A stretch of 64,000 bases of DNA from a candidate division FCPU426 bacterium (GCA_963719085.1 CAVRAL010000001.1:928001-992000); one strand, 5' to 3'; shown: positions 44,196-61,708, numbered from the stretch's first letter. Made by a program: numbers and translations. The notes: generated by a model from the sequence alone, not told the origin.

Positions 44196-45314
44196 TCACA
44201 ACCTTAAATAACAGTGGCCGGGCGCCTGCTCCACCAATCCCTTGATTTCCAAAACCAGCAATAGCTCGTTCAAACGCCGGGAGGGCAAGCCCACCGATCG
44301 GCTTAAGGCGTCCACGTGCAAGGGATCGTTTCCCATTTGTTCCAAAACAATTTTTTCCTCATCGGTGACTTCCGCCGAAGCCTGCGGCGCCGTTCCCGGA
44401 GCGAGGAAGGGCTGGGAGCGGTAAATTTTCTCGGCCTTGCGGTCCTGCAACTCGTCGAAAATATCCTGCACCCCCACCACCAAACGGGCGCCTTGCTGGA
44501 TCAGCGAATGGGTTCCCTCGGACTGCGTGTGGTTGACGGGCCCGGGAACGGCGAAAACCGGTTTGCCTTGCTCCATAGCGTGGTCCACCGTGATAAAAGA
44601 ACCGCTGTTTTTGTTGGCTTCCACGACCAAAACCCCTTTGGAAGCGCCGCTGATCAGGCGGTTGCGCTGGGGAAAGTGAAGGGCCAGGGGTTTTCCCGCC
44701 AAGGGATACTCGCTGAACAAAGCGCCTTGCTCCGCGATCCGTTCGGCCAATTTTTTGTTTTCCGGCGGATAAAGATTTAAAAGACCGCTGCCCAAAAAAG
44801 CCAGCGTCCGGCCGGCCGAAAAGCGAAGCGCCCCTTGATGCGCCAAGGAATCAATCCCCCGGGCCAATCCGGAAACGACCGTGTACCCGGAGCGGGCCAA
44901 ATCATAAGCCAGGCGTCCCGCCACATCCCTTCCATAAGAACTAGGTTGACGGCATCCGATCACCGCCAGCGCCTTTTCATCCTGGGGCAGGTAGGAGCCT
45001 CTCATCCACAAAACAAAGGGCGGGTCATAAAGCGTCTTTAACGCCTTGGGGAAAGCCTCGTCATTCTCGACTAATAAAGAAATACCGGCCGCCTCAGCCT
45101 TTTCGATTTCCCGGTTACCCCGTTCTTCGGGATTTTCAAGCGCGAGAACCTTGCGGGCCACCGCGATTGTCCAAGTGGGCAGATAGGAAAGTCGGTCTTC
45201 GGCGGCCCCAAAAACATCGCTTAAATTGGGGAAAGAAAGCCTCAAGGCGGCCAGCCGGCGGGGCCCCACCACACCCGTCAAATGAAGGGCCAAAAGGGTT
45301 TGCCGTTCGTTCAT
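44196..45314 (-). CDS. dprA: DNA-protecting protein DprA
   Basis: VSGLARGID, FPQRNRLISG, VVEA...SGS, C-terminal winged helix. Confidence 0.96.
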   Translation of the reverse strand: MNERQTLLALHLTGVVGPRRLAALRLSFPNLSDVFGAAEDRLSYLPTWTIAVARKVLALENPEERGNREIEKAEAAGISLLVENDEAFPKALKTLYDPPFVLWMRGSYLPQDEKALAVIGCRQPSSYGRDVAGRLAYDLARSGYTVVSGLARGIDSLAHQGALRFSAGRTLAFLGSGLLNLYPPENKKLAERIAEQGALFSEYPLAGKPLALHFPQRNRLISGASKGVLVVEANKNSGSFITVDHAMEQGKPVFAVPGPVNHTQSEGTHSLIQQGARLVVGVQDIFDELQDRKAEKIYRSQPFLAPGTAPQASAEVTDEEKIVLEQMGNDPLHVDALSRSVGLPSRRLNELLLVLEIKGLVEQAPGHCYLRL

Positions 45315-45318
45315 ACGC

Positions 45319-46434
45319 TTAATCCGATAAAACCGCTTTGTTGGGACCGGCTTGTTGAGCTTGTTGAAGAAGCGTCATGGCCTTCTCATACAGCCCTTTC
45401 GGATCGGTCGAATTTTCCGGGTACGACGAGGCGCTGAGGTTGATGTAAACCGCGGGGGTGGTCCCAAGAATTTGTTTGAAAAATTTGAACACGCGCTTGG
45501 CGATGATCCCGCAGGTATTGGTAGCGGTATCCGGAAGCACGATGGCGTATTGATTGGGCGATACGCGGCAAAGCACGTCCACCCGCCTTAAACTTTTAAT
45601 GAGCACTTCGGCGATATGGGCCGCCACTAAATTTTCATCGGGCCGGGCTTCGCCTTCGGTGAAGCCCACGCTTAAGATCAGCAGGCACATATTCCGGGAA
45701 TAACGACGGGCCCGTTCCACCTCAATGCCCAGGCTTTCATCAAAATAGCTTCGATTATAAAGCCGGGTCACCGAGTCCACCAAATGCGTCGAACGGTTCG
45801 GAACTCCCGGCAGCAATTGCTGTTCCTCCTCGACGATCTCTTCGAGGGAGCGCGCTTTGGCCGAAGCCGCATTGGACGCGCTGGGCGCGGCCGCGGATGG
45901 AGCGACGGGCGGCGGCGCGGCGGCGGGCGGGGCCATCTTGGCCTTCGCGATTTTTTCCACCGTGCCGCTTAAAAGTTCTTTCCACATGGTCCAAACCTGG
46001 CTCACATCCTGCACCAAGGGCAAGGCGTAAGTCCTGGAATCCACATGGCCGCAGCCCAAAAGCAAATATTCTTTTCCCGGGGTGTTGTAAACCATGAACA
46101 TGGCGCTTTTGGGTTTTTGCATCCTCAGCGAGCCATATTGATTAAAGGTGGGCTTCCCCGTGATATCGGTGTAAACCTTGATCGGCAAACGGGTGAGGGC
46201 CACTTTTTCCTCCGGTCCCAACCGGTATAGGCTGGCGTCCATCACATCAGCGTTGCCCGCGAAAGTGATCGGAATCAGTTCCTCTTCCGGCGTGGCGGCG
46301 GCCGCCACAAAAACCGTATCGAACTGATATTGGGTCATAATTTCAGAGCAGGCGTCTTTTAGATTATCGGCGGAAGGAGGATTTTTTTTACAGGCAAGAA
46401 TGAGTTTGTCTAATAGTTCGGAAGCCGTTGGCAT
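45319..46434 (-). CDS. Degenerate GGDEF-domain protein with intact RxxD I-site
   Basis: DSVTRLYNR...EVERARRY; LRRVDVLCRV-SPNQY in place of GGDEF; uncharacterised N-terminal domain and Ala/Pro linker. Confidence 0.75.
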   Translation of the reverse strand: MPTASELLDKLILACKKNPPSADNLKDACSEIMTQYQFDTVFVAAAATPEEELIPITFAGNADVMDASLYRLGPEEKVALTRLPIKVYTDITGKPTFNQYGSLRMQKPKSAMFMVYNTPGKEYLLLGCGHVDSRTYALPLVQDVSQVWTMWKELLSGTVEKIAKAKMAPPAAAPPPVAPSAAAPSASNAASAKARSLEEIVEEEQQLLPGVPNRSTHLVDSVTRLYNRSYFDESLGIEVERARRYSRNMCLLILSVGFTEGEARPDENLVAAHIAEVLIKSLRRVDVLCRVSPNQYAIVLPDTATNTCGIIAKRVFKFFKQILGTTPAVYINLSASSYPENSTDPKGLYEKAMTLLQQAQQAGPNKAVLSD

Positions 46435-46595: not shown

Positions 46596-47210
46596 TTACT
46601 TGACCTTGATGGCTTGAAAAATGGCCCGCAGGGAAACCGCGTCCGGCACCAATATGAAATACCCGCCGATCACCTCTTGGGCATCAATGAATTTAGTCTC
46701 AATGCAAATCACCTTGACCCCCTCTTCCATGCCTTGGGTGATGGTGGAAAGCAAAGCTCCCGCCATGTCGAAAACCAGGGTGGGTACCGAGATTAAAAGA
46801 AGCATGCCTAAAAACTCATTAAGGGCGCTCAAATAAGCTCCCGTTAAAATGTTCCCCGCTTCTTTTATCGCCGAGTGGCCCATCTCATTAAGTATTTTGC
46901 TGGTTCCCACCGGCTGTTTTAAAAGCATATCAGCCAAATGCAAAGCCGAGTCCCGGGGAAACAACAGGATAATTTTTCCGGTCGCGTCCCCCAAGATGGA
47001 AAGCGTCAAACCCGCCACCAAGGTATTGGGATCCCCCATCAATAGCGGGATCTCCGAAAGGGGCAAAATGGTCGCGTTGGGCACCGTGATATTGATCCGC
47101 TTTCCTAATAATTGGGAAAGCGCGGTGGCGCCATGGCCCGCCCCGATATTTCCCACTTCTTTGAGCGCGTCAATTTGGGCGGGCGTTAATTCATCGAGAT
47201 TGAGCAACAT
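46596..47210 (-). CDS. cheC: CheC-family phosphatase
   Basis: DALKEVGNIGAG and SAIKEAGNILTG (both ExxN sites). Confidence 0.92.
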   Translation of the reverse strand: MLLNLDELTPAQIDALKEVGNIGAGHGATALSQLLGKRINITVPNATILPLSEIPLLMGDPNTLVAGLTLSILGDATGKIILLFPRDSALHLADMLLKQPVGTSKILNEMGHSAIKEAGNILTGAYLSALNEFLGMLLLISVPTLVFDMAGALLSTITQGMEEGVKVICIETKFIDAQEVIGGYFILVPDAVSLRAIFQAIKVK

Positions 47211-49254
47211 GATTCCCTTTCTTAAGGCGTTTGAGATTCTCCAATTGGTTCCGCTTTTCCTTCAAATCCTCAATCAAACTGGAAACGTCCAAAATCAGGG
47301 CGATCCGCCCCGTTCCCAATATGGTCGCGCCCGCGAAACCCCGAATTCCCTTGAGCACCCGATCCAAAGGCTTAATGGCGACTTCCTGCTGGCCCAAAAC
47401 CTCATCCACGATAATCCCGACCCGGGCGTCCCCCACTTCCGCGATCAAGACCGTCTCCACCGAGCGGGAAACCCCCGAAGCGGCCTCCGGCATTTCCAGA
47501 AGCTCGGTTAAATAATATAGAGGAATGACCTCGCCCCTCAACAATAATGCCTCTTGTTGTTGAATATATTTTTTGTCCAAGGGCGTGATGTCCAAAGTTT
47601 CCACGATCCCCACCACCGGAACCGCGAACCGCTCGTCGCCGCTGCGGATCAAAAGCGCCTTAATGATGGCCAAGGTCAGGGGAAACCGAAGTGAAAAGGT
47701 GGTTCCCTGCCCCTTTCGGCTGTGAATCCGAAAGGTTCCGCCCATGGACTCCACTTTCGTTTTCGCCACATCCACGCCCACCCCGCGGCCCGATATCTCA
47801 CTGGCCGATTCCACGGTGGAAAAACCCGGCAAGGCGATCAACCGGACGGCTTCCTCGTCGTTCAACCTTTGAGCCTCATCCCGCGAGATAAGCCCTTTGG
47901 AAACCGCCTTGTTTTTGATGACGTCCGGATCGATCCCCCGCCCGTCATCGGCGACCGAGATGACCACGAAGGACCGCTCGCGCTTGGCTTCCAAACGGAT
48001 CACGCCGTAGGATTCTTTGCCCTCCCGTTCCCGGTCATTGGGGCTCTCGATGCCGTGATCCACCGCGTTTCTCAAAAGATGGACCAAGGGCTCGCCCATT
48101 TCCTCAATAACGGTGCGGTCCAGCTCCACCTCCACGCCGTTCATCTCCAGATCCACATCCTTGCCCAAATTTTTCGCCAGATCCCGCACCATCCTGGGAA
48201 ACCGGTCGAAAATTTGCTTCACCGGCATCAATCGAACCTTGGTGATCTCATCCTGCAGCTCGTCCGTGATGTGATTGAGCTGGGAAAGCGGGTCCGTTAA
48301 ATCTTTCACGTCATTGGAAGCCACCACTTGCTCAAACCGGATCTTGGCGATCACCAGTTCCTGAACCAGGGACATCAATTTGTCGAGCTTGGTCGTATGC
48401 ACCCGCACCGTGGGAAGCACGAATGATTTTTCGTCCGGCATGGGCTCGGCCATGGAACTGAGTGAGCCGCTAGGTTGGGAAGTTTCCGAAACTGCGGCGC
48501 CGGGGTTCCAAACCTCCACTTGGGCCGCCTGGACCTCGGATATTTTCATCAAGCTTTCCCGAATCACCTCGGGTTTTCGATCCGTGATCACCAAAAGCTT
48601 AAACTGGCTCTCAAACTGCCCCTTCTCGATGGCCTCCGGGTCCGGGGCGGCTTTCACGATCTCCCCCTGGTCATTGACCGCGCGCAGGATCATAAAGGCC
48701 CGCACCTCTTTAAAAGCGCTTTGCGGGTCCACCTCCATCAAAATCTCCAAAACGTGAAACCCGCTCATTTTCGCCTGGGAAAGAATGTCCATTTCCTCTT
48801 TTGAAAACGTGAAACCGGACCCGGATATTTTCGCCGCTCCCGGCTCCGCCTTCGACGCCGAATCCGTCTCGGGCGCTTCCGAAACCTTCTTGAGGGTTTC
48901 CAAGATCGCGTCCAGCCCCTCGCCGGATAAATAATCTTGGGACATGAGGGTCCGCACCCAGCTTTCCAGGCGGTCCAAGCAGGCGAACAAAACATCCACC
49001 AAAGAAGACGAGAGCTTTTTTTCCCCCGACCGCACGGGTTCCAACACGCTTTCCATGTGGTGGGTCAAGGTCGCCATAGGCTCATAGCCCATGGTGGCCG
49101 ACATGCCTTTTAACGTGTGGGCTGCCCGGAAAATTTCATTGATGGACTGGGCATGCCCGGGGTTTTTCTCTAACTCCACGAGGGCATTATTGAGGTTGGA
49201 GAGATATTCTTTCGCTTCCGTGAGGAAGGCGTCTTTGTAGTCGCTGTTTTCCAA
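47191..49254 (-). CDS. cheA: Chemotaxis histidine kinase CheA
   Basis: Hpt FRAAHTLKG, P2, HLLRNAVDHGIE, DDGRG, SGRGVGVD, C-terminal CheW domain. Confidence 0.97.
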   Translation of the reverse strand: MENSDYKDAFLTEAKEYLSNLNNALVELEKNPGHAQSINEIFRAAHTLKGMSATMGYEPMATLTHHMESVLEPVRSGEKKLSSSLVDVLFACLDRLESWVRTLMSQDYLSGEGLDAILETLKKVSEAPETDSASKAEPGAAKISGSGFTFSKEEMDILSQAKMSGFHVLEILMEVDPQSAFKEVRAFMILRAVNDQGEIVKAAPDPEAIEKGQFESQFKLLVITDRKPEVIRESLMKISEVQAAQVEVWNPGAAVSETSQPSGSLSSMAEPMPDEKSFVLPTVRVHTTKLDKLMSLVQELVIAKIRFEQVVASNDVKDLTDPLSQLNHITDELQDEITKVRLMPVKQIFDRFPRMVRDLAKNLGKDVDLEMNGVEVELDRTVIEEMGEPLVHLLRNAVDHGIESPNDREREGKESYGVIRLEAKRERSFVVISVADDGRGIDPDVIKNKAVSKGLISRDEAQRLNDEEAVRLIALPGFSTVESASEISGRGVGVDVAKTKVESMGGTFRIHSRKGQGTTFSLRFPLTLAIIKALLIRSGDERFAVPVVGIVETLDITPLDKKYIQQQEALLLRGEVIPLYYLTELLEMPEAASGVSRSVETVLIAEVGDARVGIIVDEVLGQQEVAIKPLDRVLKGIRGFAGATILGTGRIALILDVSSLIEDLKEKRNQLENLKRLKKGNHVAQSR

Positions 49255-49313: not shown

Positions 49314-50399
49314 TTAACGGGATAAAAAAGACAGAATCTCGCCGGCGATGTCAGGAATGGGCAGCTGCCGGTCCACCACTCCGCTGTCCACCGCGGCTTT
49401 GGGCATGCCATAGACCACGCAGCTTTCGGCGTCTTGGGCGAAAGTCCTTCCACCGGCTTCGTGGATATTCTTTAAACCGGCGGCGCCATCCCGGCCCATT
49501 CCGGTCAAAATGACCCCCAAACAATGTTTGCCGGACGCTTTGGCGACCGATTGCATCATGACGTCCGCCGAAGGGCGCACCCCCATTCGCGGCGGCGAGT
49601 CATTGAGCGCGATCCGATAATTGCCCGGCCCGCCTTGAACCGTCAAATGACGCCCGGCCGGCGCCACGTAACCGAAACCGGTTAAGACCGACTGACCTTC
49701 CTCGGCTTCCACCACATTCAGGGCGCCGCATTCATCCAACCGGCGGGCCAAGGCCTTGGTGAAACCCGTGGAGATGTGCTGCACAATGACCAAAGCCGCC
49801 GGGAAGCCGGTGGGAATCTTCGTTAAAAGCTCGTGCAGCGCCCGCGGCCCCCCGGTGGAGGAGGCCACCGCCACCAGCGTGTGCGCCGGAGCCGAGACTT
49901 CCAAAAGCTGTCCATGGCTGGGCTTGGGGTCCTTTTTGGGCTCCAACCCGCTCATCTCGCCCTCACTGCGTTTGCGGGGATGGGACAGCGAAGCGACCTT
50001 TACTTTTTCAATTAACTCGTTCTTGATGCTTTCCAAATCCGTGATGGGAATCCCGGAAGGTTTTCCCACGCATTCCACGGCGCCAATTTCCAGGGCGCGG
50101 ATGGTGGTTTCCATCCCCTTGCCCGTGTGGGCCGACAACATGACCACGGGAACCGGATCCTCCACAATGATCCGCCGCAGCGCGGAGAGGCCGTCCATGT
50201 GGGGCATTTCCACATCCATCGTGATGACATCGGGTTTGAGCAGCTTATTCTTCTCAATAGCTTCCAGACCCGTTTTGGCCGTGTCCACGACGGTGATTCC
50301 CTGCTTGGGATCATCCAAAATTTTTACCAGGATTTTGCGCATGAAAAAGGAGTCGTCCACGACGAGAACGCGAATCAGGTGAGGGGGTTGTGCCAACAT
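49314..50399 (-). CDS. cheB: Chemotaxis methylesterase CheB (REC + esterase)
   Basis: REC domain; SSTGGP, VQH, TGMGRDG catalytic triad. Confidence 0.96.
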   Translation of the reverse strand: MLAQPPHLIRVLVVDDSFFMRKILVKILDDPKQGITVVDTAKTGLEAIEKNKLLKPDVITMDVEMPHMDGLSALRRIIVEDPVPVVMLSAHTGKGMETTIRALEIGAVECVGKPSGIPITDLESIKNELIEKVKVASLSHPRKRSEGEMSGLEPKKDPKPSHGQLLEVSAPAHTLVAVASSTGGPRALHELLTKIPTGFPAALVIVQHISTGFTKALARRLDECGALNVVEAEEGQSVLTGFGYVAPAGRHLTVQGGPGNYRIALNDSPPRMGVRPSADVMMQSVAKASGKHCLGVILTGMGRDGAAGLKNIHEAGGRTFAQDAESCVVYGMPKAAVDSGVVDRQLPIPDIAGEILSFLSR

Positions 50400-50434: not shown

Positions 50435-50797
50435 TCAGCCCAAAACCCGCTTGATCGCCTCGTGAACCCGGGGCGTTTGAAAAGGCTTAATGATAAAATC
50501 CCGGGCGCCGGCCTGGATCGCGTCAATCACCATGGCCTGCTGGCCCATGGCGCTGACCATGATGATCTTCGCCTCGGGGTCAAAACCGCGTATCTGTTTG
50601 ACCGCCTCGATTCCGTCCATGTCGGGCATCACAATATCCATGGTCACCAAATCCGGACGCACCTGTTGATATAACGCCGCCGCTTCCGAACCCGTTCCCG
50701 CCTCGCCCGCCAGTTTAAAATCATCCTTGATGATGATGCTTTTCAGGATTGCCCTCATAAAAGGCGAGTCATCCACAATCAAGACATTAACGGGCAT
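50435..50797 (-). CDS. cheY: CheY-like response regulator
   Basis: VDDS, MDIVMP, SAMGQQ, KPF. Confidence 0.92.
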   Translation of the reverse strand: MPVNVLIVDDSPFMRAILKSIIIKDDFKLAGEAGTGSEAAALYQQVRPDLVTMDIVMPDMDGIEAVKQIRGFDPEAKIIMVSAMGQQAMVIDAIQAGARDFIIKPFQTPRVHEAIKRVLG

Positions 50798-51314
50798 TCA
50801 CGCGCTCCTCGGTGAGTAACGACCACTCAAAATCGGCCAAATTCTTGATTTCTTCCAGATTAAAGACCCGCTCCAAGTTCAGCATAAGAATAAAACTATT
50901 TTTCGACTCCACCACGCCGGACAAAAATTTCGCGTCGATCGTCAAAAAATTCCGGGACGGCGCCAAACGTCTGCTCAGGGCCACCCTTTGCACTTCCAGC
51001 ACCTTGTCCACCAGCAATCCCACGATTTGGTCGCCGACTTCCACGATCATAATCCGCGCGTCCATCGTCAATTCACAGGCGGGCAGGCCAAAGCGTCTTT
51101 TAAAGTCCAGGACCGAGACAATTTTTCCCCTCAAGTTGATGATGCCGGAGAGAAACCGGGGAGCCTTGGGCATCCGGGTAATCTCAATGACGCGGATGAT
51201 TTCCCGAACCCGCTCAATCTCAATCCCAAACTCGGCGCCCGCCAAATGAAAAACGACCAACTTGAATTCCTTCTCGTTTTCCGGGACCGGCATCGTTTCC
51301 ATGTAAGACGACAT
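50787..51314 (-). CDS. cheW: CheW coupling protein
   Basis: VREII...PKAP...GIINLRGKIV...VGLLVDKV. Confidence 0.93.
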   Translation of the reverse strand: MSSYMETMPVPENEKEFKLVVFHLAGAEFGIEIERVREIIRVIEITRMPKAPRFLSGIINLRGKIVSVLDFKRRFGLPACELTMDARIMIVEVGDQIVGLLVDKVLEVQRVALSRRLAPSRNFLTIDAKFLSGVVESKNSFILMLNLERVFNLEEIKNLADFEWSLLTEERVNAR

Positions 51315-51330: not shown

Positions 51331-51816
51331 TCACAACCAAAATTCCGGCTGGTTTAATTTCTTTATTTTAATCCGGCCGTCCGCCAATGAAAATTGGATG
51401 GTCCGCCCGAATTCACCGCCCAAATCCTCGCCCACAATCGGAATGGAGAGAGTCCGCAGCTTTTCCCGGGCCGCCGTCGCGTTCCGGACCCCGATCGGGA
51501 CCGGATGGGAAACAATATGCTTAAACATGTTCGCCCCGCCCACCAGTTTGGCCTGCAGCCGGCCAATGTCGCTGCCCAACCCCTTCAGTTCCCGTACCAA
51601 TTGGTCAATCGCCGTATCCGCGTATTTCCCCGGGATGAAGCCCCGGGTGAAAAGCGCGCTGGAGGGAAGCATCACATGGGCCAGTCCGCCGTTTTTTTTA
51701 TCCCGGTCGAACAAGGTCACTCCCACGCAGGACCCCAGGCCGTAAGCCACAAAAGAATCCGGGAATTGAGCGACTTTCACCTCGGCAATCCCGACCGCCC
51801 ATTCTTTTTCACCCAT
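51331..51816 (-). CDS. cheD: Chemoreceptor glutamine deamidase CheD
   Basis: GLGSCVG, AHVMLP, KYAD, GGANMF, EDLGG. Confidence 0.94.
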   Translation of the reverse strand: MGEKEWAVGIAEVKVAQFPDSFVAYGLGSCVGVTLFDRDKKNGGLAHVMLPSSALFTRGFIPGKYADTAIDQLVRELKGLGSDIGRLQAKLVGGANMFKHIVSHPVPIGVRNATAAREKLRTLSIPIVGEDLGGEFGRTIQFSLADGRIKIKKLNQPEFWL

Positions 51817-52461: not shown

Positions 52462-52824
52462 TTAATTGAGGGTTTTCTTGACCGCTTCCAAGACATTGGA
52501 GGGTTGAAACGGCTTGACGATGAAATCCTTGGCTCCCGCCTGAATGGCCTCCACGACCAAAGACTGCTGGCCCATGGAGCTGCACATAAGAACTTTGGCC
52601 GCCGGGTTCGCCTTCACAATCTCCCGAACCGCGTCGATCCCGCCCATTTCGGGCATGATGATATCCATGATGACCAGATCGGGTTTGAGGGTTTTATAAA
52701 GCTCAATCCCCTTGGCGCCGTTTTCCGCCTCGCCGACGATCTCGTATCCCGCGCCCGCCAAAATATTTTTCAACATCATCCTCATGAAGGATGCGTCATC
52801 GACCAGCAGAACTCGTTGAGCCAC
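52462..52824 (-). CDS. cheY: Second CheY-like response regulator
   Basis: VDDASFMR, MDIIMP, SMGQQ, KPF. Confidence 0.93.
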   Translation of the reverse strand: MAQRVLLVDDASFMRMMLKNILAGAGYEIVGEAENGAKGIELYKTLKPDLVIMDIIMPEMGGIDAVREIVKANPAAKVLMCSSMGQQSLVVEAIQAGAKDFIVKPFQPSNVLEAVKKTLN

Positions 52825-52852: not shown

Positions 52853-53191
52853 TTAGAGAGCGTTTTCACCCTGCTCTCCCGTTCGAACCCGAATGACGTT
52901 ATCTAAAGGCATCAAGAAAAATTTCCCGTCGCCAATCCGACCCGTCCGAACCGTATCTAAAAGCAGCTCAACCACCTTCTCAATTTCATCGTCCAGCAAA
53001 GCGATCTCAATCCGGATACGAGGCTGGTATTGTACCTTATAATCCGCCCCGCGAATGGAATCCACTTGAACTTTTTGATAGCCATAACCCGAGGCCTCCG
53101 AAAGGGTTACCCCTCGGACTCCCGCCTCCCAAAGAACCTTCTTTACTTGTTCCAGTTTCTTGGGAGAAATAACGCAGATTAGTAATTTCAT
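52853..53191 (-). CDS. P-II family signal transduction protein (divergent GlnB/GlnK)
   Basis: 112 aa, GYGYQK, RGADY (Tyr51), TGRIGDGK, IRVRTGE. Confidence 0.93.
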   Translation of the reverse strand: MKLLICVISPKKLEQVKKVLWEAGVRGVTLSEASGYGYQKVQVDSIRGADYKVQYQPRIRIEIALLDDEIEKVVELLLDTVRTGRIGDGKFFLMPLDNVIRVRTGEQGENAL

Positions 53192-53197: not shown

Positions 53198-55414
53198 CTA
53201 TTTAATCAGTTTGGTGTTCCCCGCGCTCGGGGAAGTCTGCAATTGCCGCTTCCAAACCTCGATTTGCTGCATCACGTCCCGCGCCTGACTGGCCTTGTCC
53301 ACATCATCGCCCGGGGAGTCCAAATACTTTTGAAACTGGTCCAACGCCTCATCCCACCAGGATTTGTACCGGTAGACCTGGCCCAAATAAAAATGGACAT
53401 CGGGGTAATTCGGCCGCAAATCATTGGTCTTTTTCAACTCCACCAACGCCTCGTCCCACCATTGACGCTCAATATAAACTTTTCCCAATTGCAGGTGGGC
53501 CTCCGGCGACGAAGGATTCACCGAAACCGCTTTGGCCAGTATTTTAACGGCGTCGTCATAGGATTTTAAATTAATAAAGGTTTCGCCCAGTTGCTCCAGG
53601 GCCTGCTGGTACTTGGGATTCAGCCGGAGGGCTTCCTGGAACTCCCGGGCCCCTTCCTGGTTCTGCCCCGTATTTTTGTAGACCATGCCCAACTCAAAAT
53701 GAAGGGTCGGATTATCCGGATCGGCCATGATTTGTTTGATCAAGGCGTCCGAAGCCTCGGTCAACACCATCCTCTTTTTCAGGGCCACAGCCAAATTGTT
53801 TTGCGCCGTTTTGTACTCCGGCTCAATCTCAACCGACTTTTTAAAAGCGTCGATGGCCTTCTCATATTGGCCTTGCTTAAAATAAACCACACCCATGTTG
53901 TTATAGGCTTTCGCGTATTTGGGATTGTAGGTGATCGCCAACTCATAATGCTGGATCGCCTCTTTGGAAAGTCCGGCGTTTTTGTAGGCCACGCCCAAGC
54001 TGTTATGGATGATGGGATTGCGGGGATCAAACTCCAGGGCTTTTTTATACTCGATCACCGCTTCCTCGAAACGTCCCTTATCGGCCAAGGCCAGCCCCAA
54101 ATAAGTCAAAGCCTCGGCGCTGGAAGCGATCGACACATTCAGCTCGATCGCCTGGTTGATTTCCCGGATCGCCTCGTCGAATAGGTTCACCTTGTAATAA
54201 TAAACGCCCAAATAGTAATGGGCTTCCGCGTTATCCGGGTCAATCTCCAAGGCCTCCCGGACTTCCCGGGTGGCTTTTTCACTTTCCCCCATCTTGAAAA
54301 AAGTCACGCCCAACTCAAAGTGGGCCATGCTGGAATGGGGAACCAACTCGATGGCTTTTTTAAACTGTTGGGCCGCCTCATCCGCCCGTCCCAGTTCCCG
54401 TTGGGCGATCCCCAACTGCATATAGTTCTCCAGATGATCCGGTCCCAAGCTGACGGCTTTTTGATGGGTCATCAAAGCGTCTTCCAGCATCCCCTTTTGC
54501 AGATAAACTTCCCCCAAATGCCGGTAAAGCCGGTCATCGGTGGGCGCCGCCTCAATGGCCCGCTTGTATTCCCGGACCGCCTCCTCCAATAAACCTTTCC
54601 CCCGATAGGCGGCGGCCAAACTCAAATAAGTGTCGATCTGGGGCGTCTCATCCCGGACCTGGTTGGAAGTCCTTTCGGCGATTTTTTCTTCCAAACTTTT
54701 AGAACGCTCAATGGCCAGAAGCGCCTGGGCGCCCTGCCCAAAATTCGGGTTCAGGTCCACGGCCTTCTTAAATTCCCTCTCGGCGTCTTCCAGCATGTTT
54801 TTATCGCCGAAAACAAAGCTCAGGTTATAGTGCGCGATCGCGAAATCCGGACTGAGCGAAATGGCCTTTTTGAACTCAATCATGGCCTCATTCACCATGG
54901 CCTTTTTGTAATAAATCTCCCCCAGATTGTTGTGCAGGTCCGCGAAATAAGGATTTTTTTCGATGGCTTTTTTAAATTCGGTAACGGCCGCGTCCAGATT
55001 GCCCAGGCATTTTTGGGAGACGCCGAGATAATTGCGGGCGAAGGGATGGGCCTCGTTCAGTTCCAAAGTCCGGTTATATTCCCCGATCGCCGACTCATAT
55101 TGGCCGGTGTAGCGATAGGCGTTCGCCAAGTTGTAATGCGCTTCCGGATCCATGGGAAACATTTGGGAGGATTTTTTAAAGGCCTCAATCGAGCGGTCGT
55201 AAAGGCCCGTATGGCGGTTGACCGACTTTAAATTCTCCAGCGCCTGGGTGTTTTCCGGCTCCACTTCCAAGGCGGTTTTAAATTCCTTGATTGATTCGGC
55301 GTACATGCCCTTGGAATAGTAAAAGACGCCCAGATTGTTGTGGGTCGACGCGTCGCCCTGGTCCACGCCATGGGCCATTTCACGGATCATTCGGGTTTCA
55401 GGTTGGGATGGCAT
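53198..55414 (-). CDS. Large cytoplasmic TPR-repeat protein
   Basis: Continuous 34-aa TPR pattern (AHYNLG...A...F.KA..L.P); no signal peptide. Confidence 0.9.
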   Translation of the reverse strand: MPSQPETRMIREMAHGVDQGDASTHNNLGVFYYSKGMYAESIKEFKTALEVEPENTQALENLKSVNRHTGLYDRSIEAFKKSSQMFPMDPEAHYNLANAYRYTGQYESAIGEYNRTLELNEAHPFARNYLGVSQKCLGNLDAAVTEFKKAIEKNPYFADLHNNLGEIYYKKAMVNEAMIEFKKAISLSPDFAIAHYNLSFVFGDKNMLEDAEREFKKAVDLNPNFGQGAQALLAIERSKSLEEKIAERTSNQVRDETPQIDTYLSLAAAYRGKGLLEEAVREYKRAIEAAPTDDRLYRHLGEVYLQKGMLEDALMTHQKAVSLGPDHLENYMQLGIAQRELGRADEAAQQFKKAIELVPHSSMAHFELGVTFFKMGESEKATREVREALEIDPDNAEAHYYLGVYYYKVNLFDEAIREINQAIELNVSIASSAEALTYLGLALADKGRFEEAVIEYKKALEFDPRNPIIHNSLGVAYKNAGLSKEAIQHYELAITYNPKYAKAYNNMGVVYFKQGQYEKAIDAFKKSVEIEPEYKTAQNNLAVALKKRMVLTEASDALIKQIMADPDNPTLHFELGMVYKNTGQNQEGAREFQEALRLNPKYQQALEQLGETFINLKSYDDAVKILAKAVSVNPSSPEAHLQLGKVYIERQWWDEALVELKKTNDLRPNYPDVHFYLGQVYRYKSWWDEALDQFQKYLDSPGDDVDKASQARDVMQQIEVWKRQLQTSPSAGNTKLIK

Positions 55415-56039
55415 CGCGAACCTCAGAAAGCGTTGTTTTTAAATTTTGTTCATCCACCAAAATGTCCGGATTCAAAACCGAATACAGGTCTTCCTTGATT
55501 TTTCCAAGGCAATAATAAATCTCGGTGTTCTTCCCGTAGAGATAAGTCGGAACGGGCTCGATTTGATCCACCTTGAAGCGCCTCACTTCCAAAACCTGAT
55601 CCACCCACAAGATAAAGTAATAGCCCTTTCGCTCCAAAACGATAAACCATCCCTTGGACTCGCTCCCCAAATCTTCCTTGGCCAAAATCTGGCGGAAGGA
55701 CAAAACCGGTAATAGATTGCCGCGCAGCGAAAAAACCCCGGCCCAATGCGGCTGGGACAAGGCCGTTGGGATCAAGGCGCCAAACTTCAAGACTTCCCGG
55801 ACGCGGTAGGTCTCCACCCCGTAAAACTCATTCTCGATCCGAAAGGTCAAAACCAGCATCCCCTCCATGACTTGGAGGATATCCTGTTCCAGCACAAACC
55901 CCAAGCGCACCAAAACTTTCCCGATCGGCTCCCGGGTTTTCTTTTGTTCCACCAGGGCCACTTGGATTTGCCGGGAAGTGATTTTCCCGGCCTGCCGTAA
56001 AAGTTCTCCCAGGGATTTTTCCTGGACCCGCATCGCCAT
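55398..56039 (-). CDS. MshEN-like N-terminal domain fused to CheW
   Basis: SLGELLRQAGKITSRQIQVALVEQ-5aa-PIGKVLVRLGFV followed by VREV...GVFSLRG...VDQV CheW fold. Confidence 0.8.
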   Translation of the reverse strand: MAMRVQEKSLGELLRQAGKITSRQIQVALVEQKKTREPIGKVLVRLGFVLEQDILQVMEGMLVLTFRIENEFYGVETYRVREVLKFGALIPTALSQPHWAGVFSLRGNLLPVLSFRQILAKEDLGSESKGWFIVLERKGYYFILWVDQVLEVRRFKVDQIEPVPTYLYGKNTEIYYCLGKIKEDLYSVLNPDILVDEQNLKTTLSEVRDAIPT

Positions 56040-57214
56040 CAGACTGTTCCTTTTACAATTTTCAAATTATTTTTCAAAATCTCGTTGGACGCGTCCACTT
56101 CCAAAGCCTTTTCCCAATGCGAGACCGCCTGGGGCTTATCCCCCATTTTCAAATAAATGTTCCCCAGCTTGGACAAAGCGTCCACATGGCGGGGATTCAG
56201 CACGATCAGTTTCCGAAACTCGGTCAAAGCCTCGTCGAATTTTCCAAGCTTGTAGTAAATGGTCCCCAAATTATCCAAGATCAACACGTCATTCGGATCC
56301 AAATCCTGGGCCTGTTTATATTCCTCCAAAGCCCGCTCCATCTCGCCCTGCTTGTCATAGATATATCCCATGACATTATGAATGCTGGCGTCCTGCGGAT
56401 TGAGCTCGATGACCTTTTGATACATCTTCAAAGCTTCCTCGTGCTGAAGCCGGCTGGCGTAAATCATCCCCATCTTGATATAGGTTTCGGAGCTCCCCGG
56501 GTTCTTCTGTTGAGCCACATTTAAAAAAGCCATGGCCTTGTCATAATGGCCCATCGCCATATAAGTCTGGCCCAACTTCAAATCCACTTCCGGCTCATTC
56601 GGATTCAAGGCTAAAGCCTCTTGGTAAGACGCGATGGCCTTCTCATTTTGGCCGTTCTTTTGATAAAGATTGCCTAAAATCGCGTGGACCACCGAATGCC
56701 GGGGATTAATCCCCAGGGACTTCTCATAATATTGAATCGCTTCCTCGTTTTGGCCGCTCTGCTCGTAAACATCCCCCAATTTGAAATAAATCTCGGAGTT
56801 ATTCGCGTTGATCTCAATGGACTTCATGTATTGATCAATCGCATCCTTTAATCGCCCCGCCTTCACCAACACATTTCCCAGTTGGTTGTAAAGGGCCGCG
56901 TCCTTGGGGTTCAGCTCAATGGCCTTTTCCAATTCCGAAATCGAATCCTCAAATCGGTTTAAAAACTCTAATAAAGTCCCCAATTTCAGCCGGGCGTTAA
57001 GATTCATGGGATTCAACTCGAGAGATTTGCGGTAATAACTTTCCGCCTCCGAATATTGCCCCATCTGGCCGTAAAGACTGGCCAAATGAAACAAAACCTC
57101 CCCATCCTGCGGACTTAGCTCCAGCGCCCTTTTAAACTCACCGACCGCATCGGCATACCTTTTAGAAATGGAAAAAGCCATCCCTAAGTTGATATGATCT
57201 TGCGCCTTATCCAA
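56039..57214 (-). CDS. TPR-repeat protein
   Basis: About 11 tandem TPR units (…IELNP…LG..Y). Confidence 0.9.
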   Translation of the reverse strand: MDKAQDHINLGMAFSISKRYADAVGEFKRALELSPQDGEVLFHLASLYGQMGQYSEAESYYRKSLELNPMNLNARLKLGTLLEFLNRFEDSISELEKAIELNPKDAALYNQLGNVLVKAGRLKDAIDQYMKSIEINANNSEIYFKLGDVYEQSGQNEEAIQYYEKSLGINPRHSVVHAILGNLYQKNGQNEKAIASYQEALALNPNEPEVDLKLGQTYMAMGHYDKAMAFLNVAQQKNPGSSETYIKMGMIYASRLQHEEALKMYQKVIELNPQDASIHNVMGYIYDKQGEMERALEEYKQAQDLDPNDVLILDNLGTIYYKLGKFDEALTEFRKLIVLNPRHVDALSKLGNIYLKMGDKPQAVSHWEKALEVDASNEILKNNLKIVKGTV

Positions 57215-57249
57215 CGTCCATCCTCCACCGATAAAATTGCGGCTTCAGC

Positions 57250-58077
57250 TCAAACCTTTTTGCCCAGCGCCAGCTGATAAAAGCGGCTGCGGATATCCAC
57301 ACAGCGATAAAGCTCCCGAGCGGGCCCCAATAAAGTCTCCGTCAAACCCAAAACCAAAAAACCGTCCAATCGTAAAACCCGCGAAAAATGCTCATATAGT
57401 TTTTGCTGCTGGGGCGCGGTCAAATAAATCAAAAAATTACGGCACACAATAAGGTCAAAACCCCAATAATCCGAAGGCCATTCCCCCAATAAGTCGTGTT
57501 GAGAAAATCTTATGTTTTTTTGGAGTCCGGGTTGAATCTTAAACTTGGCCCCCTCCACCCGGAACATTTTCCCGATTACTTTTTTCGAAAGCTTCCCGAC
57601 GCTTTCACTCGGATACTCCCCCAACCGCGCGGTCCGAAGGCTGGCCCCGTCCACATCCGTGGCCAATATCTCGTAAGAAAATCCCGGAAAATCCTTTAAG
57701 CCCTCGCTCAAAAGAAAAGCCAAAGAGTAGGGTTCCTCACCCGTACTGCAGGCCGCCGACCAAATTCTTATTCTTTTATCCACCGCCGTCCGGACGATCT
57801 CCGGAATCACTTTTTCCTGCAGGGACTTGTAAATTTCGGCGTCCCGAAAAAACTCCGTCACGTGGATGGTCAATCGGTCCAGAAGATGGGTGGCCTCTTC
57901 CGGATTCTGGGTTATAAAATGAAAGTAATCCCGATAAGTGCCGGCGTGCGTCGCCCTCATCCGAACCGCGACACGCCTTTTAACATAATTGACTTTATAA
58001 TTGAGTCCATCAAAACCCTTGATCTTTAAAACCAACTCAAGAATCTTGGGAAAGTAAGCCTCATCCTCCAGAATCAT
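57250..58077 (-). CDS. cheR: Chemotaxis methyltransferase CheR
   Basis: TEFFRD, IWSAACSTGEEPYS, ATDVD, HDLL, CRNFLIYL. Confidence 0.96.
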   Translation of the reverse strand: MILEDEAYFPKILELVLKIKGFDGLNYKVNYVKRRVAVRMRATHAGTYRDYFHFITQNPEEATHLLDRLTIHVTEFFRDAEIYKSLQEKVIPEIVRTAVDKRIRIWSAACSTGEEPYSLAFLLSEGLKDFPGFSYEILATDVDGASLRTARLGEYPSESVGKLSKKVIGKMFRVEGAKFKIQPGLQKNIRFSQHDLLGEWPSDYWGFDLIVCRNFLIYLTAPQQQKLYEHFSRVLRLDGFLVLGLTETLLGPARELYRCVDIRSRFYQLALGKKV

Positions 58078-58123
58078 TCCTCAACCTGTTTTTCTTTCAC
58101 GCGCCGCGGCAAAAAGCTCGATC

Positions 58124-58993
58124 TCAAGGCTGATACCAGGCCTCGAACCCTTTTTGAATCGGCTCCGTGCTGTTTAAAATCTGCGCCATGGAATAGTTGG
58201 GGCCCGCATAAAAGACCTGGGCCAGCCCAAAGGGTTGGTGCACGTCCTCCGCCAACCAGCCGGTTTCACTTTTTTGCCGGAGCCTGAAAGTCTGGCCTTC
58301 CACCACGCCGTCTTTTTGACCCGCGGTCAAAACAATCCAATCATTTTGCGCATAATAGCTCAGTGAGGGTTTTCCCTCGGCGACATAACTATGGATAGGT
58401 TGAGCCGGCAGGGTTTTCCGGCGTTGGGCTTGTTTCCAACGCACAATCTCATCACTGTAGGACTTCACCGAATCCCCCGCTTTAAACGGGGCAAAGCTTT
58501 CCTTGGTTTCCGCCAAGCACCTTGTTTTTTGGATTTCAATCACCTGAAGAATGGCCAAGTTTTCCACCCGGCGGCCCACGAACCCGGCATGATCCTCGTT
58601 AATGTTTCCCGCTATCCGATAAACCACCAAAAAATCCCCGGGCTTCACGATCGCGTTCGAAAGTTCCACATAAGTCTTCTGCGGAGTCGAAAACTCCATT
58701 TTTTCGGAGAAGTCACCGGCGATTTTCCCCAACTGCGGAATTTTCGAGTCGTCCTGCGTTAGATAACCCGCGGAAACAAAATAATAAAATCCCACATTAT
58801 CTGAAATGCGGACGCGTTCCGCCGCCGCGCTTGAACCGTCCCCCGCCGTTTCCACGGCATCGTCATCCGCCGCCGTCGCGGTCGCGGTGGGCGTGTCCGC
58901 CGCCGCGGCTTTGGGGGGCAGGCAACTCCCCAACGCCAAAATCAGGCCGGCGAAAAGAAAAAAATTCCAAGTCTTAGTAAAATCAATGCGCAT
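58124..58993 (-). CDS. Exported TsaP-like protein lacking LysM
   Basis: Signal peptide, Ala/Thr linker, duplicated beta modules (GKIAG...KPGD..VVYR; AQNDWIVL.AGQKDGVVEG...FGLAQV) resembling the TsaP C-terminal region. Confidence 0.5.
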   Translation of the reverse strand: MRIDFTKTWNFFLFAGLILALGSCLPPKAAAADTPTATATAADDDAVETAGDGSSAAAERVRISDNVGFYYFVSAGYLTQDDSKIPQLGKIAGDFSEKMEFSTPQKTYVELSNAIVKPGDFLVVYRIAGNINEDHAGFVGRRVENLAILQVIEIQKTRCLAETKESFAPFKAGDSVKSYSDEIVRWKQAQRRKTLPAQPIHSYVAEGKPSLSYYAQNDWIVLTAGQKDGVVEGQTFRLRQKSETGWLAEDVHQPFGLAQVFYAGPNYSMAQILNSTEPIQKGFEAWYQP

Positions 58994-59381
58994 GGTTCAC
59001 CTCGTCGGAAAGATCTTTCGCTTTCGCGGTCCATTCGGTCTCTGAGGAATAATGGTCAAAGATAATTTGCAGGTAATTATTGGCCAACTTAGGCGCCCCC
59101 GTCGTCTCGTCTTGAATCTCAGCGCAATGATAGAGCCCGGCCGCGCAAAGGTCCCCTTGCTCCGGATAAAGCTCATAAAGCTTCATGTAGGTCACGATCG
59201 CCGTTTGGTTATCCCCTAAAATGTCGCACCAGCGGGCGGCGTAATAAAGGGCCTTCGGCGCGTTCGGATCCTTGGGGTTATCTTGAACCCATTTCTCCGC
59301 TTGATCCGCCAGCATGGAGGAATTCAGCGCCACAAAAAAAACGCCGATCAAAATAATCGCGAAAAAAATCATCTTGCCCAT
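58983..59381 (-). CDS. Small membrane-anchored TPR-like protein
   Basis: N-terminal hydrophobic segment; APKALYYAA, YELYP helical repeats. Confidence 0.6.
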   Translation of the reverse strand: MGKMIFFAIILIGVFFVALNSSMLADQAEKWVQDNPKDPNAPKALYYAARWCDILGDNQTAIVTYMKLYELYPEQGDLCAAGLYHCAEIQDETTGAPKLANNYLQIIFDHYSSETEWTAKAKDLSDEVNHAH

Positions 59382-59404
59382 GACCCAGCCTTTCTAAATT
59401 GAAA

Positions 59405-61708
59405 TCAACTCATTTTCGAGAAAATACCGCTCAACGTGTTTCGTTTAATCTTGGCTTCTTCGAGCTTTTTTTGCGCCCTTTCATTGGACGGTTCCAACTC
59501 CAGGATTTGACTCCACAGCCGAACCGCTTTGTCCAAATCGTTCGAGTCAAAGGCCTCTTTACCTTGCGTATAAAGCGTCTCAATATTTTGGCTGATCTGG
59601 GCCTTCAAGGCCCCCAACTGCCTGACCGCGTCCGGGTGTCCCGGCGAGAGCCGCAAGACCTTCGAGAATTCCCTTTGGGCCGCTAAAAGTTCCCCGGCCT
59701 GCTGGGCGTTGACTCCCTCTTGGAATAAGTCTTGGATCTGCTGCTCAAGCATTTGCTGGGATTTTTGAAGATAAGCGGTCAAATAAGCGTTGGCCTCGGC
59801 TTTCCCCAAGGCTTTCTTGAAAAAATCGATGGCGGTTTGAAAATCACTGCGCACATAACTGCGAACGCCTTGTTCGAACAAAGCCAAAATGGCCGCCTTA
59901 TCGGGATTCGCGTCCACGCCTTCCACGCCGAAGGACAAAAGCTTGGTGAGCCCCTGCTGAAGGTAACGGGCCACATCCTCCATTTCGGAGTTGATCTCAT
60001 AAGCTTGGTTCCAAGAAACCAAGGCCCCCAACAAATCCCCCGCTTTGTACAGCTCAATCGCGGATTGGTTTAAGTTGATGGCTTTGGTTTTGGCCAAGGC
60101 TTTTTGACCCGCGATTTTTATTTCCCGATGTAAAACTTTGGCCGTCTCATTATCCGGATCCAAAACCAGCGCCTGCTCCACTTCGGACAAGGCCTTTTCG
60201 TATTCGCCCTTTTGATTGGCGATCTGGGCTTCCTGGATCACAATACGGGCTTTTTCCCGGTTGGCCATCTCCTCGCCGATCGCCTTAATGTAGGCTTGGG
60301 CCTGCTTATTTTCGGGGTCAATTTCGAGGGCCTTTTGAAACTCAATAATGGCGGATTGATGTTTCTTTTCCCGATAGAGTTGGAGCGCGGCCTTGATATT
60401 GGAAGTCGCGTCCTTTTTCTTCTCGCTCTTATCGTCCATTTCACGAAGCCGGGCCATGAGAACGTTGGCCTCTTTATGGTCGGGTGATTCCTGCAAAATT
60501 CTTTTAAGTTCGCCCCGGCTCTCATCGTATCGTTTGCGGTCGTATAGGTCTTGAGCCCGCTTCAACCAGCCTCCGATACGCTCCTTGGACTGGCTGTTTT
60601 CCATTTGGGAAATCAAGGATTGGGCCGAGGCCCTCGAGGAAGAAATGCCTTTCAATCCCAAATCAAGCTCTCCGGGCGAAGTGGCCTGTTCCATGGCGCT
60701 TTCACGGGTGATCGCCCCGGTCCGCACCAAAGAAATCAAGGACTGGTCGAAGGTTTGCATTCCGTACTGGCTCTGGCCTTCGGCGATAAAGCTCCGGATA
60801 TGGCTGATCTTGTTATCCGCGATCAGCGATTTAATCGTTTGATTGACAATCATGATTTCGCAAGCCGGCACAACCCCTATGCCGTCGGCCTTGCTGACCA
60901 AACGCTGGGAAATGACGGCCTTCAAGGTATTGGAAAGCTGGATTCGAACTTGGTTTTGTTGTTCCGGGGAGAAAAAGTCCAAAATACGTTCCATGGTTTG
61001 GATCGTATCCATCGTATGCAGGGTCGATAAAACCAAATGGCCCGTTTCCGCCGCCGAAATGGCCGCCGACACCGTTTCCACATCCCGCATTTCACCCACC
61101 AGGATGATATCCGGATCCTGGCGCAAAACATATTTCAACGCCGAACGGAAGCTTTCGGTGTCCAAACCGACTTCCCGCTGGGTAATGCTTGATTTTTTAT
61201 CCGGATGGACAAACTCGATCGGGTCTTCCACCGTCACGATATGGGCGTGCCGGTTCTCATTCATTTCGTTGATCATGGCGGCCAGCGTGGTCGACTTCCC
61301 CGAACCCGTGATGCCGGTGACCAGGATAAGCCCCCGCTGTTCCATGGCGATCTGTTTCAAAACCGCCGTGGGCATTCCAATCTCTTCGATTTTCGGAATT
61401 TTTTGCGGGATCACCCGCATGATGATTTCGGGAAGGCCCCTTTGCCACATGGAGTTCGTTCGAAAACGGGCCAACCCCTCGACGGCGTAAGCCAAGTCGA
61501 CTTCGCGGTGATCCTCAAAAAAGAGCTTTTGTTGTTTTTCGTCCATCAGAATGGAAGCGACTTCCGCTATTTCCTGCGCGGCAAGGGGCGTCTCGCCCTG
61601 GGGGGTTAAATCACCATCAATACGAAACAGAGGGACGGAACCGGCCTTTAAATGGACGTCGGAGGCCTTCTTTTCGACCATAGAATAGAGGATTTGTTGT
61701 AGGTCCAT
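59405..61708 (-). CDS. pilT: PilT/PilU-family retraction ATPase fused to a C-terminal TPR region
   Basis: ASDVHL, GITGSGKST, EDPIE, VGEMRD, GHLVLSTLHT, GMQTFDQ, then ~400 aa of TPRs; ATG 61708. Confidence 0.9.
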   Translation of the reverse strand: MDLQQILYSMVEKKASDVHLKAGSVPLFRIDGDLTPQGETPLAAQEIAEVASILMDEKQQKLFFEDHREVDLAYAVEGLARFRTNSMWQRGLPEIIMRVIPQKIPKIEEIGMPTAVLKQIAMEQRGLILVTGITGSGKSTTLAAMINEMNENRHAHIVTVEDPIEFVHPDKKSSITQREVGLDTESFRSALKYVLRQDPDIILVGEMRDVETVSAAISAAETGHLVLSTLHTMDTIQTMERILDFFSPEQQNQVRIQLSNTLKAVISQRLVSKADGIGVVPACEIMIVNQTIKSLIADNKISHIRSFIAEGQSQYGMQTFDQSLISLVRTGAITRESAMEQATSPGELDLGLKGISSSRASAQSLISQMENSQSKERIGGWLKRAQDLYDRKRYDESRGELKRILQESPDHKEANVLMARLREMDDKSEKKKDATSNIKAALQLYREKKHQSAIIEFQKALEIDPENKQAQAYIKAIGEEMANREKARIVIQEAQIANQKGEYEKALSEVEQALVLDPDNETAKVLHREIKIAGQKALAKTKAINLNQSAIELYKAGDLLGALVSWNQAYEINSEMEDVARYLQQGLTKLLSFGVEGVDANPDKAAILALFEQGVRSYVRSDFQTAIDFFKKALGKAEANAYLTAYLQKSQQMLEQQIQDLFQEGVNAQQAGELLAAQREFSKVLRLSPGHPDAVRQLGALKAQISQNIETLYTQGKEAFDSNDLDKAVRLWSQILELEPSNERAQKKLEEAKIKRNTLSGIFSKMS

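Follow-up and report, generated by a model that had tools for sequence, protein, structure and literature searches.

What does the long run of genes between positions 44196 and 61762 of a 64,000-nucleotide stretch of DNA from a candidate division FCPU426 bacterium (GCA_963719085.1, CAVRAL010000001.1:928001-992000; the window in the following) encode, and is it one system or several? The run comprises 18 genes, all on the minus strand and uninterrupted, as judged from open reading frames (ORFs) and from Pfam and NCBIfam models. Their order is PilT-TPR (a PilT-family ATPase joined to tetratricopeptide repeats, TPR), s132, p289, CheR, TPR391, MshEN-CheW, TPR738, P-II, CheY1, CheC1, CheD, CheW2, CheY2, CheB, CheA, CheC2, a degenerate GGDEF protein and DprA. 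All 18 had been named in an earlier reading of the sequence (the original prediction) and all are present, as are the P-II protein and the modules of the cyclic di-GMP (c-di-GMP) type that it had placed inside a chemosensory operon. Its interpretation of the run as a single integrated system fails, because the chemosensory (che) block is cleanly absent from a sister genus, g2, in which PilT-TPR, s132, p289 and DprA-TopA are kept. The interval is composed of three modules instead.

The che block in the middle of the run appears from its make-up to be F1-type (Thermotoga/Bacillus-like) and not a new class. What is already known here is thus an F1-type chemosensory operon, and what is new is a conserved insert of P-II, MshEN-CheW and TPR proteins. 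We regard the modular structure and the F1-type variant as probable, a grading that extends to this reading and not to any single output of the pathway.

Three modules in one gene run

The run was compared with a phylum sample of 99 genomes in 23 families (f1-f23). The source genome (assembly of 3.04 Mb, 99% complete) belongs to f1, g2 is a sister genus within the same family, and f1 and f2 form one order. The g2 genomes G046 and G044 show TMEM260-TPR, PilT-TPR, s132, p289, DprA, TopA, an amino-acid kinase (AAK) and NrdR with no che gene between them, and G046, which is 99% complete, has no CheA match anywhere at E<=1e-60, the threshold used for wider CheA matches (orthologues were called at E<=1e-130). 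In family f10 (G034, G036) the che genes are bracketed by PilT-TPR upstream and DprA or TopA downstream. Since f10 shares these flanks around its che genes, the arrangement in g2 is to be understood as a clean secondary loss of the che block.

The first module, formed by TMEM260-TPR, PilT-TPR, s132 and the TsaP-like lipoprotein p289, would represent a pilus-type envelope and motor set. The gene that precedes PilT-TPR, a TMEM260-like glycosyltransferase with C-terminal TPR (61808..63937, minus strand like all window coordinates given below; Pfam PF11028, 4.4e-25), remains upstream of PilT-TPR in the che-less g2 and therefore belongs to the PilT-TPR module and not to the che block. The second module would be the 13-gene chemosensory block from CheR to CheC2 plus the degenerate-GGDEF gene (45319..46434; Pfam GGDEF 1.8e-14). 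The latter is found in 27 of the 32 genomes of the order f1+f2 and in none of the three che-less genomes of g2, and as it is missing there along with the che block, both can be treated as one unit. The third module, dprA-topA-AAK-nrdR, would be housekeeping synteny. DprA (44196..45314; Pfam) stands beside TopA-AAK-NrdR in the che-less g2 as well, which identifies dprA as a housekeeping neighbour outside the system. The proposed link to DprA and DNA uptake finds no support, as PilT-TPR, s132 and p289 directly abut DprA-TopA-AAK-NrdR where the che block is lacking.

Within the run the intergenic spacing ranges from -20 to +59 nt, with the exceptions of 161 nt between CheC2 and the GGDEF gene and 105 nt between DprA and TopA, which is followed by AAK and NrdR. 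The order from TMEM260-TPR to the GGDEF gene is identical gene for gene at three related genome loci, with amino-acid identities of 41-90%, so that the run is far beyond what chance would produce. A scan for promoter-like sites returned 17 (12.9 +/- 3.6 expected) and one for terminator-like sites 47 (34.5 +/- 5.5 expected); these counts are near chance and allow no inference on transcription units.

The degenerate GGDEF protein carries SPNQY in the active-site position, which departs from the GG[DE]EF signature of a diguanylate cyclase, and has an intact RRVD (RxxD I-site) five residues upstream. In all 11 aligned orthologues RRVD is invariant and the GGDEF position degenerate or variable. Such a pattern is expected of a c-di-GMP receptor and not of a cyclase, as far as it can be read from the alignment.

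A chemosensory block of apparent F1 type

In the sections of PMC10746217 consulted here, the F1 class is marked by CheC together with CheD, has 44H (44-heptad) receptors as its cognate type and shows no fixed gene order. The block in the window contains two CheC and one CheD by Pfam and NCBIfam: CheC1 (51809..~52440, start uncertain, the listed ORF reaching up to 52585 and the CheC_Thtogales model aligning from residue 52; Pfam CheC 1.1e-17), CheC2 (46596..47210; Pfam CheC 1.5e-23, CheC_Thtogales 2.9e-49), both of them phosphatases by family, and CheD (51331..51816; Pfam CheD 1.4e-28). CheA (47191..49254; Pfam) has the complete succession of P1 (Hpt), P2, P3 dimerisation, P4 HATPase and P5 CheW domains, and scores 539.6 bits with the NCBIfam model CheA_Halo compared to 360.3 bits with the E. 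coli-type model. The best NCBIfam models for CheA, CheY and CheC are likewise archaeal or from Thermotogales, and among PDB matches of CheA the 379-residue chains 3ja6 and 1b3q (347 bits) rank ahead of the full-length 6s1k (315 bits); we take these three entries to be Thermotoga and E. coli proteins. The remaining members of the block are the single-domain response regulators CheY1 (52462..52824; Pfam REC 1.4e-31; best NCBIfam model CheY_Halo) and CheY2 (50435..50797; Pfam REC 3.7e-32), a plain CheW, CheW2 (50787..51314; Pfam CheW 1.9e-33), and the methylesterase CheB with a receiver domain, REC (49314..50399; Pfam CheB_methylest 1.1e-62 plus REC).

The system had been described as receptor-less and without flagellar genes. 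Within the interval 44196-61762, to which the statement is limited, there is indeed neither a gene for a methyl-accepting chemotaxis protein (MCP) nor a flagellar gene; genome-wide the claim does not stand, as the source genome has six MCP genes and a flagellar motor and hook gene set. In families outside of f1, f2, f8 and f9, CheD and CheW are separated by a gene of 424-433 amino acids (aa), which Pfam identifies as an MCP in G087. The best match of this in-cluster MCP in the source genome is an orphan HAMP-MCP of 420 aa (C1:559576-560838; 38-40% identity). Both the G087 protein and the orphan have exactly 154 residues after the hairpin Glu (ARAGExGRGF), which corresponds to 22 heptads per arm and thus to 44H, by arm-length count and not by class hidden Markov models (HMMs). 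With a 44H receptor between CheD and CheW in other families and an orphan 44H receptor in the source genome, the label receptor-less cannot be kept. The idea of an undescribed class is contradicted by the combination of CheC, CheD, 44H receptor and CheA P1-P5, a make-up of F1 kind that had been named beforehand as speaking against it.

With the F1 systems of the Thermotoga maritima and Bacillus subtilis type the block shares CheA P1-P5, CheW, CheY, CheB, CheR, CheC, CheD and the 44H receptor. It differs from them in the insert of two TPR proteins, MshEN-CheW and P-II, in the TsaP-like lipoprotein at its 5' end, and in its persistence in relatives without flagellar genes. In systems of the Tfp class (Pil-Chp, Tax) the kinase is ChpA-like and combines multiple Hpt domains with a receiver. 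What the block may share with them is an output to pili, and in four families a PilT-family ATPase lies nearby; however, the CheA here has one Hpt, a P2 and no REC, so it is no ChpA-like kinase, and CheC and CheD are present.

Conservation across the phylum

A CheA orthologue (E<=1e-130) is present in 64 of the 99 genomes. None was found at this threshold in f3, f4-f7, f12-f14 and f19, where G081 (f19) has a partial match at a contig end. The core order CheR, TPR391, MshEN-CheW, TPR738, P-II, CheY, CheC, CheD, (MCP), CheW, CheY, CheB, CheA, CheC is kept in f1, f2, f15, f16, f17, f18, f20, f22 and f23. Family f10 has this order without TPR738, in f11 the contig ends after P-II, and in f8 and f9 CheR...CheB is found at one locus and CheA-CheC2 at a second. 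The cluster with its extras is conserved in 14 of the 23 families; for f21 only the part from CheY to CheC2 was found. The expectation that gene order would be conserved in relatives has been borne out, both by the three loci that agree gene for gene and by the core order across families. CheY1 is well conserved throughout the phylum (62-88% identity).

Further genes recur at the borders of the block. An HD-GYP gene lies directly upstream of CheR in six of eight checked loci of f15-f23 (in f15, f18, f22 and f23; in none from f17 and f20). On the other side, an actin-fold protein of about 700 aa with similarity to FtsA and PilM stands 3' of CheC2 in ten families (f2, f8, f9, f10, f15, f17, f18, f20, f22, f23; for example L086:17735-19849 and L084:17697-19838). 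It is missing after CheC2 in f1, and in f8 and f9 it forms a separate trio with CheA and CheC. We considered "PilM-like" as a pilus-specific label for this protein and rejected it, as its FtsA score exceeds its PilM score and both are below cut-off.

The P-II and MshEN-CheW insert

The insert follows CheR, the methyltransferase gene with which the che block begins (57250..58077; Pfam CheR 2.7e-51 plus CheR_N). Two of its members consist of TPR throughout: TPR391, a cytoplasmic protein (56039..57214; Pfam TPR families) kept in every cluster copy examined, and the large TPR738 (53198..55414; Pfam), which is present in f1, f2, f8, f9, f11, f15-f18, f20, f22 and f23 and absent from f10.

MshEN-CheW (55398..56039; 213 aa) joins a 53-residue MshEN-type module (residues 10-59) to a CheW domain (residues 63-197; Pfam CheW 2.2e-20). 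The module scores 53.9 bits with NF053729, the model of an MshE-related c-di-GMP domain with a cut-off of 38, and two 24-residue motifs separated by a 5-residue linker are found in all 16 aligned orthologues. The same layout is described in the consulted part of PMC12943098, where the Arg of motif 1 is R9 of Vibrio cholerae MshE. Compared to the MshEN domain of MshE-type ATPases the two-motif layout is therefore shared, and the differences are the junction with CheW and the replacement of the motif 1 Arg by Ser. According to PMC5013675, MshEN occurs fused to CheA and to CheX; a fusion to CheW is not named in the sections of it consulted. A profile search with MshEN-CheW gave a best 150 dominated by proteins with multiple CheW domains, among which six were single full-length matches of 203-221 aa. 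As a lead only, the ESM Atlas contains clusters of CheW proteins of 201-216 aa labelled Goldiibacteriota and FCPU426.

The P-II protein (52853..53191; Pfam P-II 1.1e-22) is divergent. It is clearly a member of the family (PF00543, 80.7 bits compared to a cut-off of 25); its NCBIfam scores of 108.9 and 98.8 bits lie under the equivalog cut-offs of 181 and 202, and its identity to the three other P-II genes of the source genome is 34-37%. In GlnB and GlnK, the B-loop, C-terminal and T-loop (R38, Y51) residues have established roles in nucleotide and target binding. All 17 aligned orthologues of the che-linked P-II share an unchanged B-loop RTGRxGDGK, R101, R103 and TGE. Their T-loop varies, with no Arg at position 38 in any of them and a Tyr at position 51 in f1 and f2 only. 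Fold family, length and nucleotide-site residues are thus shared with GlnB/GlnK, whereas the variable T-loop and the scores below the equivalog cut-offs set it apart, as does its location inside a che operon instead of beside amtB or glnA. A 4-nt overlap between the P-II gene and its predecessor is seen in each of the three relatives checked, this predecessor being TPR738 (G087, G078) or MshEN-CheW (G034 of f10); in the source genome a gap of 6 nt separates the P-II gene from TPR738.

The literature searched does not describe this cluster, and nowhere in it did we find P-II reported from a che operon or as a component of a chemotaxis pathway; TPR, P-II and PilT are not mentioned in the Geobacter che paper. 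A metagenome scan with the P-II alignment kept 80 loci, of which three were che-linked and the others ordinary P-II contexts, and is uninformative on the spread beyond the phylum.

The pilus-type module

PilT-TPR (59405..61708, with an ORF up to 61762 and a likely start at Met19, position 61708; 767 aa from Met19) belongs to the PilT/PilU subfamily, scoring 463.5 bits with TIGR01420 compared to a cut-off of 319. Its best PDB matches are PilT chains (about 350 bits), Walker A (GITGSGKST) and Walker B are both readable, and about 400 residues of TPR repeats make up its C-terminal part. PilT retraction ATPases have the C-terminal motif AIRNLIRE, at the place of which PilT-TPR has TIKSLIAD. The full-length fusion occurs in 16 of the 23 families. 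Only in four of them (f1, f2, f10, f11) does it adjoin the che block. In nine other sampled families (f3, f13, f15, f16, f18, f20-f23) it occurs by itself, with varying surroundings; in four loci of the latter kind no conserved partner of PilT-TPR was found. PilT-TPR is not tied to the che system.

The small protein s132 (58983..59381), encoded by the next gene, has a membrane helix at its N-terminus and a short domain resembling TPR; its match to TIGR02795 (YbgF-type TPR; E 2e-6) is below cut-off. Its position is occupied in ten loci of other families by proteins of 128-162 aa with the same N-terminal helix. The neighbouring p289 (58124..58993) has the lipobox LGSC and two beta domains and matches no Pfam family at E<=0.01, hence no LysM. 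The fold of its AlphaFold2 model (pLDDT 80.6) matches the C-terminal domains of TsaP: chain 6ve2_O of the PilQ-TsaP complex is the sole PDB match at E<=1e-3 in Foldseek (E 6.7e-5, TMq 0.52, TMt 0.64, probability 1.00), and the earlier suggestion of a TsaP-like identity is thereby upheld. TsaP itself carries an N-terminal LysM peptidoglycan-binding domain. Despite the shared fold, p289 differs from it in being a lipoprotein without LysM and with only 16% identity. FlgT_C-like clusters turned up for p289 in the ESM Atlas, again as leads only.

By hhalign (99.0%, E 6.6e-18) the lipoprotein is homologous to proteins of about 390 aa that other families have upstream of CheR. In f10, f15, f17, f18, f20, f22 and f23 a small membrane-anchored protein and the ~390-aa protein are found together at this place, and f11 shows the ~390-aa protein only. 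Where the HD-GYP gene is present, its place is between these proteins and CheR. A TsaP-like lipoprotein accordingly marks the 5' end of the cluster in ten families.

Pili, flagellar genes and other che loci

The source genome has a type IVa pilus cluster with pilB (including an MshEN domain), pilT, pilC, a pilin gene, pilD, pilMNO and, after an unnamed ORF, the secretin gene pilQ; there are a further two pilT/U genes. PilM is present in all 23 families, so that pili are always available as a target. The flagellar cluster at C1:506-549 kb contains fliF-G-H-I-J, motAB, fliL-M-N-O-P-R, flhB-A-F-G, flgF/G-A-H-I-J, flgM-N-K, fliK, flgD and flgE. About 11 kb separate the last gene found in it from the orphan 44H MCP. 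Neither Flagellin_N nor Flagellin_C has a Pfam match in the source genome, and phmmer searches with the flagellins of two relatives returned nothing among its ORFs of at least 60 aa. Flagellin_N occurs in 13 of the 99 genomes and in none of the 31 of family f1. Twelve of the 13 are genomes whose FliM match is of a second, weak kind, except for G035 among them, which has none; the thirteenth, G003, has a weak flagellin match. Two flagellar-type gene sets seem to exist in the phylum, the one of the source genome being without a recognisable filament protein.

The distribution of the che system follows neither set. Seven genomes of f8 and f9 (G019, G025, G026, G028, G030, G031, G033; 87-100% complete) have a CheA orthologue and no FliM or Flagellin_N match, and G033 and G019, both 100% complete, are likewise without FliG and FlhA and have an intact CheR...CheB block. 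Conversely, a strong FliM match without a CheA orthologue is found in genus g2 and in families f3, f12, f13 and f14. G074 of f13 (one contig, 96% complete) has PilT-TPR and a strong FliM match; neither CheA (at E<=1e-60) nor H-kinase_dim is matched in it, and it is possibly a case of a motor without any chemotaxis kinase. H-kinase_dim had no match in five che-less genomes, although this short model also missed G001, which has CheA-like matches.

Four more CheA-like genes are located in three other loci of the source genome. At two places (C1:1116000-1127000 and C4:1221000-1231000) a TonB-dependent receptor is accompanied by a YfiR-like (DUF4154) protein or domain and a CHASE8 MCP, an unusual recurring combination. 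At C4:809100-813300 two genes in tandem encode CheA-like proteins of 568 and 539 aa, which have HATPase and CheW domains and lack Hpt; after them come a CheW, a 4HB MCP and a large histidine kinase with PAS. Elsewhere in the window, a small PilZ protein (30498-30893) beside a beta-helix/NosD-like protein, downstream of the lpx/skp lipid A genes, is possibly another c-di-GMP receptor. A LytTR response regulator and its histidine kinase are encoded immediately upstream of two adjacent giant ORFs (11018-21364 and 21396-23395; 1499 and 1948 aa), one with only an fn3 match and the other without any Pfam match.

The pathway and its output

If the members of the block act as their families do, 44H receptors encoded elsewhere in the genome would form arrays with CheA and the two CheW proteins, and CheA would phosphorylate CheY1, CheY2 and CheB. 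Receptor adaptation would fall to CheR, CheB and CheD, and dephosphorylation to CheC1 and CheC2. The insert of TPR391, MshEN-CheW, TPR738 and P-II may feed the internal state of the cell into the array: c-di-GMP could enter by two routes, the MshEN module on one of the CheW proteins and the I-site of the degenerate GGDEF protein, and adenylate, perhaps also 2-oxoglutarate, through a P-II with a conserved nucleotide site and a changed T-loop. Phosphorylated CheY would finally reach a motility apparatus.

As to which apparatus this is, an involvement of type IV pili has somewhat less than even chances in our estimation, a flagellar-type motor as the sole target is rather doubtful, and another cellular function is unlikely. 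The tight packing of genes on the same strand from PilT-TPR to DprA, the recurrence of PilT-TPR...che...DprA/TopA in f10, the TsaP fold of p289 and the persistence of the system in relatives without flagellar genes could all be taken to favour the view from which the analysis started, of one receptor-less system of a new class in which P-II and c-di-GMP act via TPR scaffolds on retraction by PilT-TPR, with DNA uptake through DprA. We consider it very improbable, as the genome has its MCPs and other families a 44H receptor inside the cluster, the make-up is F1-like, the flanking modules of g2 survive without the che block and PilT-TPR stands alone in so many families; its receptor-less, new-class and DprA parts are largely refuted. 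Somewhat unlikely, yet better placed, is ordinary F1 flagellar chemotaxis in which the extra proteins do no more than tune swimming and the neighbours of pilus type stand there by coincidence or provide parts that the flagellar motor has borrowed. The F1 make-up with its 44H receptor agrees with it, as do the full set of motor, rod and hook genes, the orphan receptor near them, the lack of any other F-type system in the source genome and the FliM N-terminus LSDGEVSALL, which presumably resembles a CheY-binding motif. According to the consulted part of PMC11870540, pilus proteins have been co-opted into flagellar motors in Campylobacterota, and since pilus-derived proteins can serve flagellar motors in this way, the TsaP-like neighbour does not settle the output. 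This explanation has to face, however, the seven f8 and f9 genomes that keep a CheA orthologue without FliM or flagellin (with the whole block in the two checked), the lineages with strong FliM and no che system, and the failure of both Flagellin_N, throughout the family, and phmmer, in the source genome, to detect a filament protein. A function other than taxis, for example c-di-GMP-linked surface behaviour or matrix production, would be in line with a presence independent of either flagellar gene set and with the recurring c-di-GMP parts, which are MshEN-CheW, the degenerate GGDEF protein in f1 and f2 and the HD-GYP gene upstream of CheR. We judge it quite unlikely, because the block contains no output enzyme or DNA-binding regulator with a receiver, both regulators being single-domain CheY proteins, and because two CheC phosphatases and CheD are typical of taxis systems.

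The F1-type variant with its insert, whose target may be pili, alone or alongside flagella, is the reading that we prefer, and it likewise has observations against it. The F1 assignment is one by composition, receptor arm length and best-matching named models and not by class HMMs, and the phyletic counts overstate their weight, as the genomes compared are relatives and not independent of each other. Families f8 and f9 have the system and no PilT-TPR, and f3, f12 and f13 have PilT-TPR and not the system. None of the 13 pilus-only genomes of f4-f7 (with PilM and without FliM) has a CheA orthologue, and the FliM N-terminus of the source genome resembles a CheY-binding peptide. In none of the 16 orthologues of MshEN-CheW does motif 1 begin with Arg: all have Ser there, after a Lys or Arg, and Met or another residue takes the place of the last Gln in motif 2. 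Binding of c-di-GMP by this protein, as judged from its motifs, is not assured. Three other che systems of the source genome, with TonB-type receptors, YfiR-like proteins, CHASE8 or 4HB receptors and CheA proteins without P2, have to be considered as well.

Implications

The most far-reaching version of this pathway would have P-II and c-di-GMP act directly on the receptor array via dedicated CheW and TPR scaffolds, and an F1-derived pathway steer the retraction of type IV pili, with PilT-TPR, the FtsA/PilM-like protein or a TsaP-like partner of the secretin as point of contact, within a lineage whose flagellar-type motor lacks a recognisable flagellin. We think this unlikely as a whole. If true, it would amount to pilus taxis gated by metabolic state, of a kind that has not been described. 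P-II proteins are classic sensors of energy and of carbon/nitrogen balance, and c-di-GMP is known to act at the motor (YcgR), at CheR (MapZ) or at the PilZ domain of a receptor. A CheW with a c-di-GMP-receptor module would place this second messenger at the receptor array itself. The conservation of the cluster in 14 families, together with its gain and loss relative to two flagellar gene sets and universally present pili, makes the phylum a testable case of the rewiring of an F1 pathway.

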